A stretch of DNA of 16,166 nucleotides from a virus: UHGV virus genome UHGV-0245760; one strand, written 5' to 3'. The notes beneath the pieces are model-generated. The model was given only the letters and a program-made list of their open reading frames with translations. It was not told where the DNA came from and did not search any database. Positions 13,206-16,166 of the stretch are shown here, piece after piece (positions within the stretch are counted from its first letter, which is position 1; every line of letters begins with the position of its first letter). Made by a program: the position numbers and the translations under genes.

Positions 13206-13362
13206 AGCTTCAGCCCCTTGTATCCGTTAAATGATTCGGCAACAATCATCACCCACCACGCGCGTAATCTCACCCCTGCGCCGTTCTCCCGCCACGGCGA
13301 CAACAAAAAGCAGTAACCCCCTCCGCACGCACATGCGACCATGCCGCACAGGGAGGGAGCAG

Positions 13363-14472
13363 ATGACCGACACCACCATGCAATTGCTCAGTCAGGGCAC
13401 AGACCCCGTAAAAATGCCGGATTTTGATATTCTCGCGGAGGGTAAAACGCTGTCAGGCGTGGCAGAGCGCCTGATGAGCCTGTCACTGACCGACAACCGG
13501 GGATTTGACGCGGACCAGCTCACCATCACGCTGGATGATGCGGATGGTCAGTTGCAGCTACCGCCACGGGGCGCGCGCCTGACGGTTCTCATTGGCTGGA
13601 AAGGAGAACCGCTGACAGAAAAAGGCACTTACATTGTTGATGAAATCGCTCACGAAGGACCGCCGGACAGGCTGACTGTTTCAGCCAGAAGCGCAGATTT
13701 TCGGGATGAATTTAACGTTAAACGTGAGGTGTCCTGGCATGATGTGACCGTTGAGCGTGTGGTATCCGCCATCGCTCATCGGTATGGTCTGAAACCGCAA
13801 ATCAGCGAAATGCTGATGGATATCGAAATCGACCACGCCGACCAGACCGAAGAAAGCGACATGTCCTTCCTTACGCGCATGGCGGAAATGCTGGGCGCAA
13901 TCACCACGGTAAAAAGCGGCAATCTGTTATTCATCATGCCAGGTGGTGGCGTGAACGCACAGGGCCAGCCGTTGCCCTCGTTCGCCATTACACGCAGCAG
14001 CGGCGATCGCCATCAGTTCCGCATTGCTGACCGCGAGGCGTATACGGGGGTACGCGCCTACTGGCTTGATCTTAATTACGGGAAAAAGAAAAAAGTCAGC
14101 GTGAAACGCCGTAAACCGCCAAAACCCAAAAAGGAGAAAAGCAGCAGCCGTGAAGGTGATTATATGGAAGGCGCGGAAGGCAATGTGTTTGTGTTACGCA
14201 AGACTTATCAGAACGAGCAGGCAGCAAGACGCGCAGCGGCGGCAAAGTGGCAGCAACTACAACGCGGAGCCGCATCATTCTCCATCACGCTGGCGCGTGG
14301 ACGTGCAGAACTCTACCCCGAAATGCATGGCACGGTAACAGGATTTAAAAGCGAGATTGATAATAAGGACTGGATCATTGCAAAAGCCGAGCACACCATT
14401 GATAACAGCGGTTTTACCACGCAGCTTGAGCTTGAGGCAAAAATCCCGGAATGGATAGCGGAAACAGAGTGA
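13363..14472 (+). CDS. D: P2 gpD-like tail protein
   Basis: gpD-like motifs (LTITLDDADGQLQLPPRGARLTV, DEIAHEGPPDRLTVSARSADF, ESDMSFLTRMAE, ITRSSGDRHQF, KWQQLQRGAASFSITLARGR). Start chosen at ATG 13363 with GGGAGG RBS; the ORF-track 13231 extension is not preferred. Confidence 0.85.
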   Translation: MTDTTMQLLSQGTDPVKMPDFDILAEGKTLSGVAERLMSLSLTDNRGFDADQLTITLDDADGQLQLPPRGARLTVLIGWKGEPLTEKGTYIVDEIAHEGPPDRLTVSARSADFRDEFNVKREVSWHDVTVERVVSAIAHRYGLKPQISEMLMDIEIDHADQTEESDMSFLTRMAEMLGAITTVKSGNLLFIMPGGGVNAQGQPLPSFAITRSSGDRHQFRIADREAYTGVRAYWLDLNYGKKKKVSVKRRKPPKPKKEKSSSREGDYMEGAEGNVFVLRKTYQNEQAARRAAAAKWQQLQRGAASFSITLARGRAELYPEMHGTVTGFKSEIDNKDWIIAKAEHTIDNSGFTTQLELEAKIPEWIAETE

Positions 14473-14512: not shown

Positions 14513-14773
14513 ATGTTCCGTTGTCCGCTTTGTGGCGCATCTGCCCGTATCCGCACCAGTCGTCCGGAAAATGATTCAAACACCGTGCGGCAAAAGTATT
14601 ACCAGTGTAACAATCTGGAATGCGGCGTATGCTTCTCAACACTGGAAGCTTTCCATAAATTCACATCAAAACACGCCTCCGGCGTTCACTCTTCAGAAGG
14701 TATCCCGTGGCATGAGCTGCCAGCTTCACACAGGGGAAACAATCAGATGAGTTTGCCTTTATCTCAGAATTAA
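14513..14773 (+). CDS. ogr: Ogr/Delta-family zinc-finger late transcription activator
   Basis: MFRCPLCGASARIRTSR...YYQCNNLECGVCF: CxxC...CxxxxC zinc finger in the P2 Ogr arrangement; GGGAGG RBS; sits right after D as in P2. Confidence 0.8.
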   Translation: MFRCPLCGASARIRTSRPENDSNTVRQKYYQCNNLECGVCFSTLEAFHKFTSKHASGVHSSEGIPWHELPASHRGNNQMSLPLSQN

Positions 14774-14963
14774 CAGGCAGAATTGCCGGAGTAACAAAAA
14801 AGCGATAGATTACGCGCGGGTGCCTTTCGGCTGATGGTCGGAGGGAATACCCGAAGGCCAGATGTGGAAAGGCCCCGGAAAACATTTCTGTTTAACCGAG
14901 GCCCTGACCATCTAACCTTAGCAAGTGATAGGTTAGCGCCTCCCTGAAAAAGGAGCAAGCGCT

Positions 14964-15104
14964 ATGTCGCAAAAATCGCTTATGGCCATCACGTTCTGCG
15001 TGACGGCAATCCTCATCATCTGGATGCTGCACGGTTCGCTGTGTGAAATACGGATGAGCTTCTGGGGAGCGGAGTTTGCGGCGTTCTTACAGTGTAAGCA
15101 GTAA
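14964..15104 (+). CDS. Hok/Gef-family type I toxin (46 aa)
   Basis: MSQKSLMAITFCVTAILIIWMLHGSLCEIRMSFWGAEFAAFLQCKQ: N-terminal membrane helix, then SLCEIR and E-AAF motifs and C-terminal Cys as in Hok/HokA proteins. AGGAG RBS at 14951-14955. Below the ORF-track length cut-off. Confidence 0.7.
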   Translation: MSQKSLMAITFCVTAILIIWMLHGSLCEIRMSFWGAEFAAFLQCKQ

Positions 15105-15190
15105 GGAAACCGCGACGGGGGAGCTATCCCCCGTCAATCGGTTGCCAGGGTAAGGTCGATAAGGCACCCTATCTCACAGACATGAACAAC

Positions 15191-15226
15191 AAACCCGCAG
15201 CGTAAGAACTGCGGGTTTTCTTTTTG
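15191..15226. terminator. rho-independent terminator between the convergent hok-like gene and the minus-strand exported-protein gene (possibly bidirectional)
   Basis: Stem CCCGCAG (15194-15200) / CTGCGGG (15209-15215), 8-nt loop, then TTTTCTTTTT; A/T-rich on the complementary side as well. Confidence 0.55.
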
Positions 15227-15293
15227 GAACTATCACTAGCTAGTGTACCGTTAACGGCACATAATGCTCGCACAACAAACCTGTTAAAAGAGA

Positions 15294-15575
15294 TTACTCA
15301 GCATTCTCCTGCTTCCATTGCCGGATCATTTCATCGGTAACATCACCCTCATAACATACCACGTCATACCCTCCATTACGGCTATATGCACTGCGTCCAC
15401 CACATCTACTACCATTCCTTGCATGATTATAAGGACACGCACAATTGCCTGGATAAGATTCAATGGATTCTTTAATTATTTCTTTTTTGATCTGAGCATC
15501 AGACTTTCCTGTTGCTGCATATCCGCTAAAAGATACTAAACAAAGGCAGATTGCCATTAATAAACCACATCGCAT
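15294..15575 (-). CDS. small exported Cys-containing hypothetical protein (signal peptide predicted)
   Basis: From Met 15573-15575 the product starts MRCGLLMAICLCLVSFSGYAA (signal-peptide-like), followed by a hydrophilic domain with 4 Cys. The ORF-track start at 15689 adds 38 residues that do not look like part of a secreted protein. Weak RBS; family not recognised. Confidence 0.5.
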   Translation of the reverse strand: MRCGLLMAICLCLVSFSGYAATGKSDAQIKKEIIKESIESYPGNCACPYNHARNGSRCGGRSAYSRNGGYDVVCYEGDVTDEMIRQWKQENAE

Positions 15576-15807
15576 ACCGATACACTCTATTACTAACCAA
15601 TCATAGCCCACATCATAAAATCGAGATGAGGAGTACAATACCTTTAACAAGAAGGTGTCATAACGATAATATGTCGTGCAATTCATCAAAAAAAAGATCT
15701 ATATCAAAGAGATAGAACTCTTATCAGTGCTTCAGACATCGGCATTCGAGGCAGCAGAAAAACAGTAAATCTGACGAATTTGCCTTTTCCCAAGATGTTG
15801 TCAGATT

Positions 15808-15961
15808 AAAAAGATAGATTAGCGCAGGTACCTGTTGGTGGATTGCAGGAGGAAAAATGAAGTCGAGTGGAAAAATCCCAGAAAAATTTTTGTTTAACAG
15901 AGGTCCTGGCTCACTATGCGAAATACGGAGGAGCTGCAGAAGAATTCTGCTTCATCCTTAG
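15808..15961 (+). pseudogene. degenerate hok-like locus remnant (toxin ORF removed by an internal deletion)
   Basis: 15808-15914 aligns by eye with the hok leader 14796-14910; the match resumes at 15915-15936 against 15039-15061 (SLCEIR region), so about 125 bp covering the toxin start and membrane helix is absent. Confidence 0.45.
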
Positions 15962-16043
15962 AGTTTAAACAGCACGTGCACTACCATTGTTTCTGCATAT
16001 CGCCACACCATCGCCACTCAACCGCCATTGCACAAAATACAAA

Positions 16044-16074
16044 TACGAAAAAACCACCCGAAGGTGGTTTCACG
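16044..16074 (-). terminator. rho-independent terminator downstream of tRNA-Leu
   Basis: Minus strand reads AAACCACC-TTCG-GGTGGTTT followed by TTTTCG, about 40 nt after the tRNA 3' end. Confidence 0.6.
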
Positions 16075-16113
16075 ACACTGCTTATTGCTTTGATTTTATT
16101 CTTATCTTTCCCA

Positions 16114-16166
16114 TGGTACCCGGAGCGGGACTTGAACCCGCACAGCGCGAACGCCGAGGGATTTTA
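16114..16166 (-). tRNA. leuZ: tRNA-Leu(UAA), 3' portion only (anticodon loop to CCA); 5' part lies beyond the window
   Basis: Reverse complement of 16114-16166 is TAAAATCCCTCGGCGTTCGCGCTGTGCGGGTTCAAGTCCCGCTCCGGGTACCA, matching the E. coli leuZ 3' half as I remember it (variable arm, T-arm GGTTCAAGTCC, acceptor, CCA). Confidence 0.85.

Follow-up and report, generated by a model that had tools for sequence, protein, structure and literature searches.

The window analysed here is a stretch of viral DNA of 16,166 nucleotides (UHGV virus genome UHGV-0245760), taken as one strand from 5' to 3'. Its right end carries, in this order, gpD, ogr, an intact hok locus, a gene for a 93-aa protein on the minus strand, the hok-like remnant considered in this work, and a terminator followed by the 3' part of leuZ. 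The features of this end that are not derived from hok are the following.

13231-14472: gpD
14513-14773: ogr (Pfam Ogr_Delta)
15294-15575, minus strand: gene for a small cysteine-rich exported protein (93 aa; annotation 'hypothetical'), which forms a cassette with its upstream region to ~15780
15974-16044, no strand: phage attP arm, starting at CACGTGCA, a conserved arm common to the Salmonella relatives
15999-16006 and 16010-16017: ATCGCCAC direct repeats, 11 bp apart, candidate integrase arm-type sites
16045-16166, minus strand: att core at attR, made of the leuZ-operon terminator (16050-16071) and the 3' part of tRNA-Leu(UAA)

Prophage context at leuZ

The last 1.7 kb of the window are found with 98-100% identity in many E. 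coli chromosomes, where they are annotated as ogr, Hok/Gef, hypothetical protein and tRNA-Leu. Because the window ends inside this tRNA-Leu gene, ARAGORN detected no tRNA in the window, and the gene was named from annotated relatives, in which the neighbouring tRNA annotations are tRNA-Leu, tRNA-Cys and tRNA-Gly. The core chromosome begins at ~16043-16048 and is matched from there rightward in 5,425 of 5,426 complete genomes, and the empty site of strain ATCC 8739 has no counterpart of the sequence left of ~16045. In strain 55989, a complete prophage lies between yecA and leuZ, with the att core of ~125 bp repeated at attL beside the integrase (L006 6030-6150). With gpD and ogr on its right, an integrase on its left and a duplicated att core, the element is a P2-like (P88-like, Peduoviridae) leuZ prophage, and the remnant is phage DNA located 70 bp from the att core. 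Two other placements of the remnant were considered and rejected. A chromosomal segment older than the prophage is not in agreement with a core match that begins at ~16045 and with an empty site in ATCC 8739 that lacks the remnant, and the end of an older tandem prophage is unsupported, just one pair of att cores being present in strain 55989.

The prophage brings its own leuZ terminator and 3' part of tRNA-Leu(UAA), so that integration regenerates an intact leuZ gene and its terminator. Some variants, including those of E. coli O26:H11 11368 (L005 3309-4448) and L012, have an extra gene for a 'YecA family protein' of ~380 aa between gpD and ogr, a cargo insertion that is absent from the window.

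In the 42.5-kb locus of strain 55989, ATCGCCAC occurs 7 times for 1.8 expected, and three of these copies flank the att core, the third being on the integrase side (L006 6247-6254). Salmonella relatives integrated at leuZ have the arm in common with the window (CACGTGCA...ATCGCCGCCAC.ATCGCCAC) and carry no hok remnant beside it; the pair of arm repeats is kept in these prophages in the form ATCGCC(GC)CAC/ATCGCCAC. The arm sites of P2 Int are TGTGGACA-like. The ATCGCCAC repeats are probably integrase arm-type binding sites.

The 93-aa protein has a signal peptide and an invariant CxCPYNHxRNGSxCG motif, and a Pfam search with it gave no family above the cutoff. Homologues were found in Aeromonas, Kosakonia, Salmonella, Kalamiella, Geomesophilobacter and others, those of Aeromonas, Kosakonia, Kalamiella, Geomesophilobacter and others (50-60% identity) lying outside any phage or hok context; when GTDB species representatives were searched via the same protein, only unrelated chromosomal contexts without hok were obtained. 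On the E. coli contig L161, the cassette is 78% identical up to window positions 15778-15780, where it directly adjoins a different att arm, upstream of copA, with no hok relic. That arm contains ATGTGGAC twice, with an 11-bp spacing. In E. coli, two or more different att sites have the cassette beside them, and the 93-aa gene looks like cargo acquired by P2-like phages. Another locus, L047, was tried as a variant without the remnant and discarded, its 93-aa gene being merely interrupted by foreign DNA.

The intact hok locus and its deleted homologue

The intact locus between ogr and the 93-aa gene was used as the reference copy. Its features are listed below, the promoter, Sok and fbi assignments being predicted by analogy with hok/sok of R1.

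14783-15226, plus strand: intact hokW-like type I toxin-antitoxin locus, from Pfam, Rfam, annotation and sequence reading
14783-14811, plus strand: predicted hok promoter, TTGCCG (14783-14788), 17-nt spacer, TAGATT (14806-14811), with the +1 at ~14818
14834-14947, plus strand: mok-like ORF
14866-14958, minus strand: predicted Sok-type antisense gene, read from the sequence on the R1 sok layout
14958-14930, minus strand: predicted Sok promoter, -35 TTGCTC (14958-14953), 17-nt spacer, -10 TAACCT (14935-14930)
14950-14955, plus strand: hok Shine-Dalgarno (SD) sequence
14964-15104, plus strand: hok CDS, 46 aa
15161-15169, plus strand: predicted fbi, AAGGCACCC, complementary to the 5' end GGGTGCCTT (14818-14826)
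15191-15218, plus strand: terminator of the hok locus, found by scan

The intact Hok passes Pfam HOK_GEF (PF01848) with 30.2 bits for a cutoff of 22, and the locus is annotated as 'Hok/Gef family protein' in RefSeq and as 'MokW-like host killing protein' in phage records. The Rfam sok model RF01794 matches the leader (14818-14977) with 42.7 bits and an E value of 6.9e-8, under its gathering score of 59; at gathering thresholds no match was obtained over the whole window, and standard Rfam annotation therefore misses the hokW-like subfamily. The leader folds better than its shuffles (z -3.83). The Sok promoter and 5' end were placed on the promoter layout of R1 sok, and the predicted Sok RNA would run from ~14924 to 14866 (~60 nt), with a hairpin followed by UUUCC at its end; the fold of this hairpin has a z of -2.95. 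A tac/fbi arrangement, in which GGGTGCCTT pairs with AAGGCACCC, is likewise predicted in the intact copy. The mok-like ORF stops at 14947, just upstream of the SD and 17 nt before the hok ATG; in R1, mok overlaps hok.

The sequence on the other side of the 93-aa gene comprises the following features.

15780-15825, plus strand: homologue of the hok promoter region, from sequence reading and alignment
15808-15908, plus strand: remnant of the hok mRNA leader, homologous to intact 14797-14906, with the +1 equivalent at ~15826
15857-15961, plus strand: chimeric ORF of 34 codons, MKSSGKIPEKFLFNRGPGSLCEIRRSCRRILLHP, from the ORF list, in which the mok-equivalent leader frame is fused to the Hok frame
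15909-15973, plus strand: remnant of the hok CDS 3' end (GSLCEIR... to the stop region), homologous to intact 15033-15102, with an extra frameshifting gap

The first-pass annotation had described a degraded hok-like locus, paralogous to the intact neighbour, in which the leader match jumps directly to the SLCEIR-coding region, and it had proposed a pairwise alignment of the two loci as a check. In this alignment, the similarity was far above chance expectation for both segments. Window positions 15808-15908 align with intact 14797-14906 at ~74% identity and with a local score of 66, to be compared with a mean of 18.6 (sd 2.4) and a maximum of 30 over 300 shuffles, and the nucleotide identity between the remnant and the co-resident leader is 72-74%. 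A second match joins 15911-15973 to 15036-15102, the last part of the hok CDS from the SLCEIR motif onward, with a score of 22 that was reached by 0 of 500 shuffles (9.2±1.3); its 25-nt core has a score of 30 for 16.8±2.1 in shuffled sequences. The gap implied between the two matches corresponds to intact 14907-15032, i.e., 126 bp, close to the deletion of about 125 bp across the toxin ORF that had been announced, and 1-2 nt of G microhomology are present at the junction. As read from the sequence, a further gap of ~4 nt in the CDS part puts the last codons out of frame. At several positions, GATGAG among them, diverged variants of the remnant are nearer to the intact hok. Homology, deletion and loss of the Pfam family all agree with a degraded paralogue, and the two hok-type loci are arranged, as described in the first-pass annotation, as direct repeats flanking the minus-strand gene at 15294-15575.

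The 126 bp missing from the remnant cover the equivalents of several functional parts: the promoter and 5' end of Sok (14907-14958, predicted by analogy with R1), the hok SD (14950-14955), the ATG at 14964 and the first 23 codons with the membrane helix. Accordingly, no Hok/Gef toxin ORF, which would have ~46-55 aa, an N-terminal transmembrane helix and a PF01848 match, is found in the remnant. There is no counterpart of the 3' UTR either, the homology stopping at 15973 with the attP arm directly after it, and neither an fbi-complementary box nor a plus-strand terminator was found in the remnant. When Rfam was searched at E≤10 over 14700-16166, only the intact locus was matched. The fold of the remnant leader (z +0.76) and that of the antisense equivalent (z +0.67) are no better than those of shuffled sequences.

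A promoter scan gave no site on either strand of the remnant. The TAGATT at 15815-15820 is a perfectly kept copy of the -10 of the intact locus, and the sole TTGCC-type -35 nearby (15780-15785) is located 29 nt upstream of it, not 17; a TTGTCA at 15798-15803 is just 11 nt upstream. The remnant is probably not transcribed, though some weak transcription may occur. Between the remnant and the intact transcript, exact matches extend over at most 10 nt in the CDS and 8 nt in the leader, lengths for which efficient antisense pairing is not expected. In the window, the mok-equivalent frame has ATT at its start, where other variants have ATG or GTG; the frame is readable here but runs into a stop or a frameshift in several variants. 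Since there is no hok start in the remnant, the mok frame would have nothing to drive.

The chimeric ORF of 34 codons, without membrane helix, is present at 15857-15961 as listed in the first-pass annotation, and a Pfam search with it gave no family. Elsewhere, it has 13 codons in three variants (L002, L009 and L011), is frameshifted to 36 codons in L010 and has its C-terminus altered by a 7-bp deletion in L012. The ORF is accidental and unconserved, and should not be called a gene in annotations.

Distribution and divergence of the remnant

At least 615 of the 5,426 complete E. coli genomes have one match covering at least 80% of the remnant query, and these were single collinear matches among the matches listed. 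Any match, with the 'distant' blastn setting, was obtained in 643 complete E. coli genomes, as collinear copies of 260-270 nt or as IS-interrupted copies among the matches listed. The deletion junction is identical in all 8 fully aligned loci spanning the range of divergence, and an intact version of the second locus was not found in complete E. coli genomes, among the matches listed. In IMG/VR, pattern searches with a leader 15-mer and a 3' 22-mer gave 31 real copies of the remnant, all collinear with the deleted form, and no intact second locus (31 of 31 deleted). In the phage collection, only hok leaders were matched by the remnant, the best being those of P88-like phages (72.5%), and the plasmid search returned two records only, both misassigned chromosomal sequences. 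No annotation of the remnant was found in any record examined.

Between variants, the identity of the remnant is 79-84%, with 1-bp indels and a 7-bp deletion, and that of its surroundings is 97-99% for the hok CDS, 95-97% for the 93-aa gene, 93-95% for the region upstream of this gene and 88-99% for the attP arm stretch. The divergence of the remnant is 0.15-0.18, as high as or higher than the synonymous divergence pooled over the three flanking genes (0.05-0.13). On this comparison, the remnant appears as the fastest-evolving segment of the region, as would be expected of unconstrained sequence. In some E. coli, the remnant region is further fragmented by an IS element of the IS3 family or by IS1, located within it or next to it (L007 1244-2457; L008 1748-2445).

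Interpretation and origin of the relic

This segment combines disabling lesions and the lack of any sign of constraint with a nucleotide homology to genuine hok that is both significant and collinear. We consider it highly probable that a second hokW-like hok/sok locus once stood near the att end of this leuZ P88/P2-like prophage and that ~15780-15973 is its relic, a pseudogene. One ancient deletion of 126 bp would have joined the leader to the last third of the toxin CDS and, as judged by homology with the intact copy, would have taken away the transmembrane helix of the toxin, the signals that start hok translation (ribosome-binding site and start codon) and, on the antisense side, the promoter and 5' end of Sok. 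Also lost would be the 3' UTR, fold-back element and terminator included, the attP arm being the next feature. Such a relic would make neither toxin nor antitoxin, would hold no constrained RNA structure and would drift neutrally; it may persist because it is short and is flanked by useful modules, with the exported-protein cassette on one side and the attP arm on the other.

The first-pass annotation had suggested that the remnant may still make leader or antisense RNA able to cross-regulate the intact copy, and a truncated leader or a Sok-like antisense could indeed be imagined as a Sok sponge or as an extra antitoxin for the intact hok/sok locus. The leader homology of 72-74%, the -10-like TAGATT and the presence of the relic in every examined lysogen having the intact copy are consistent with this idea, but the deletion spans the Sok promoter and 5' recognition end predicted from R1, neither the Sok terminator hairpin (z +0.67) nor the leader fold (z +0.76) has survived, and no correctly spaced -35 accompanies the TAGATT, the promoter scan being empty. 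Exact runs of at most 8 nt with the leader and 10 nt anywhere in the transcript, together with a neutral rate of evolution with indels in what is the fastest-evolving segment, also argue against it, as do the Salmonella relatives and the other E. coli prophage that carry hok and the cassette without the relic. We regard this cross-talk as very unlikely. A role of the DNA itself, with the hok ancestry being incidental, would be that of a part of the attP arm or of the control region of the 93-aa gene, kept for sites of IHF, Cox, Int or a regulator. The segment is 70 bp from the att core and 205-400 bp upstream of the 93-aa gene, has the arm bearing the ATCGCCAC repeats as its direct neighbour and keeps a constant form across diverged variants, all of which would suit such a role. 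However, the conserved arm elements begin only at 15974, Salmonella phages have the same leuZ core and arm repeats without the remnant, the upstream homology of the cassette ends at ~15780 with the cassette found elsewhere without the remnant, and the remnant is far less conserved than either flank, which makes this role very unlikely.

That the 34-codon ORF codes for a working small protein, for instance a peptide derived from Hok and attenuated, appears highly improbable. Its frame is open and begins with an ATG, upstream of which GGAGGAAAAA might act as a ribosome-binding site, and the closest variants have it intact, but it has neither membrane helix nor Pfam match, is shortened to 13 codons in three of the diverged variants, is frameshifted in a fourth and changed by the 7-bp deletion in a fifth, and bears no sign of purifying selection. 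A chance resemblance to hok in an AT-rich intergenic region, for which only the short lengths of the matches speak, has a negligible probability in our view, as both segments score above every shuffle and are collinear in the expected order, the sole matches of the remnant in the phage collection are hok leaders, and diverged variants are nearer to the intact hok at several positions. The occurrence of the same deleted form across variants that are 15-20% diverged could hint at a positional or minor role, and the neutral persistence of a 190-bp segment fits equally well. There is a very small chance that the relic influences hok loci in trans, be it the intact hokW-like one or others in the same cell, through a short transcript from the -10 region or by read-through from the cassette, or that it serves as accessory protein-binding DNA tuning integration and excision at leuZ; if true, a trans-acting or protein-binding relic would explain the persistence across variants with this divergence.

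The pseudogene favoured here has counterparts in known systems. Decayed hok loci are well known in E. coli chromosomes; in K-12, as Pedersen and Gerdes are said to have reported in 1999, hokA, hokC and hokE are disrupted by IS elements and hokB and hokD by mutation or truncation. Like the remnant, these inactivated loci combine a structural lesion and decay with a leader homologue that is still recognisable. The remnant differs from them in having an internal deletion of 126 bp and a loss of the 3' UTR with no IS as the cause, and in its location in a P2-like prophage, where it adjoins attP beside an intact paralogue and is unannotated in the records examined. The intact neighbour belongs to the hokW-sokW subfamily, with 81.5% nucleotide identity to the Stx-phage hok over 373 bp. 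The hokW-sokW locus of the Stx2 prophage Sp5 of O157:H7 Sakai is complete, experimentally toxic and equipped with a working antisense RNA (PMC8621323), whereas toxin start, membrane helix and antisense promoter are all missing from the remnant. Hok is enriched in prophages, and a survey of its diversity removed CDS of less than 40 aa (bioRxiv 10.1101/2025.08.07.668861), so that relic copies are discarded by Hok surveys by design.

Related Salmonella enterica leuZ prophages (L157-L160, and L048 from IMG/VR) have the integration site, the arm repeats, ogr, the exported-protein gene and the hok slot in common with the window. They carry two intact tandem hok loci on the ogr side and a third that is truncated by the 3' end of the convergent exported-protein gene, with its leader, SD and first 4-5 codons left. 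In L157 (4360-5520, minus strand of the locus) and L048 (289-1452), the three hok-type loci are arranged head to tail from ogr to the exported-protein gene, and the intact pair encodes 46 aa and 46 aa or 53 aa and 46 aa, depending on the strain. The truncated third copy of Salmonella is on the ogr side of the exported-protein gene, whereas the relic described here is on the att side, and nothing hok-like is present in Salmonella between this gene and the arm. An intact second toxin, which the first-pass annotation had proposed to look for in related genomes, is thus present in the Salmonella relatives, but it is not an orthologue of the relic.

The P88-like phages Chuche, P88 and Xuanwuvirus P884B11 are 95-98% identical to the window from ogr to hok. 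These and further P88-like phages, which have other integration modules, diverge from it just past the hok terminator, at ~15177-15227, and Chuche has a com/methyltransferase cassette between hok and the integrase. This divergence and the Chuche cassette indicate that the interval between hok and attP is a variable cargo slot. Concerning the route by which the relic came to this slot, the first-pass annotation had favoured local duplication followed by inactivation of one copy; the degraded homologue of the intact copy is confirmed, and simple duplication would be one of two possible routes. The leader of the remnant has 72-74% identity to the co-resident hok, 70-72% to the Stx-phage hok and 63-66% to the Salmonella copies, and thus appears marginally nearest to the co-resident one, but after so much neutral decay these differences cannot separate duplication from recombination. 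The tandem hok arrays of the Salmonella relatives are a point for duplication. The remnant interval is bounded by two mosaic joints, the end of the cassette at ~15780 and the start of the attP arm at 15974, and since it lies exactly between them, recombination of two phages fits equally well. We infer that the relic arose either by a tandem hok duplication within the slot or by recombination of two phages that each carried hok beside attP.

About 11% of complete E. coli genomes, those of the O157:H7, O26:H11 and 55989 lineages among them, carry this unannotated hok pseudogene, the direct importance of which is small. Taken together, the Salmonella arrays and the E. coli relic show that hok copies are repeatedly gained and lost in the slot between ogr and attP of P2-like phages, which holds one intact copy and one relic in E. 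coli and two intact copies and one fragment in Salmonella, and the relic can be used as a neutral marker for the mosaic history of this prophage family.
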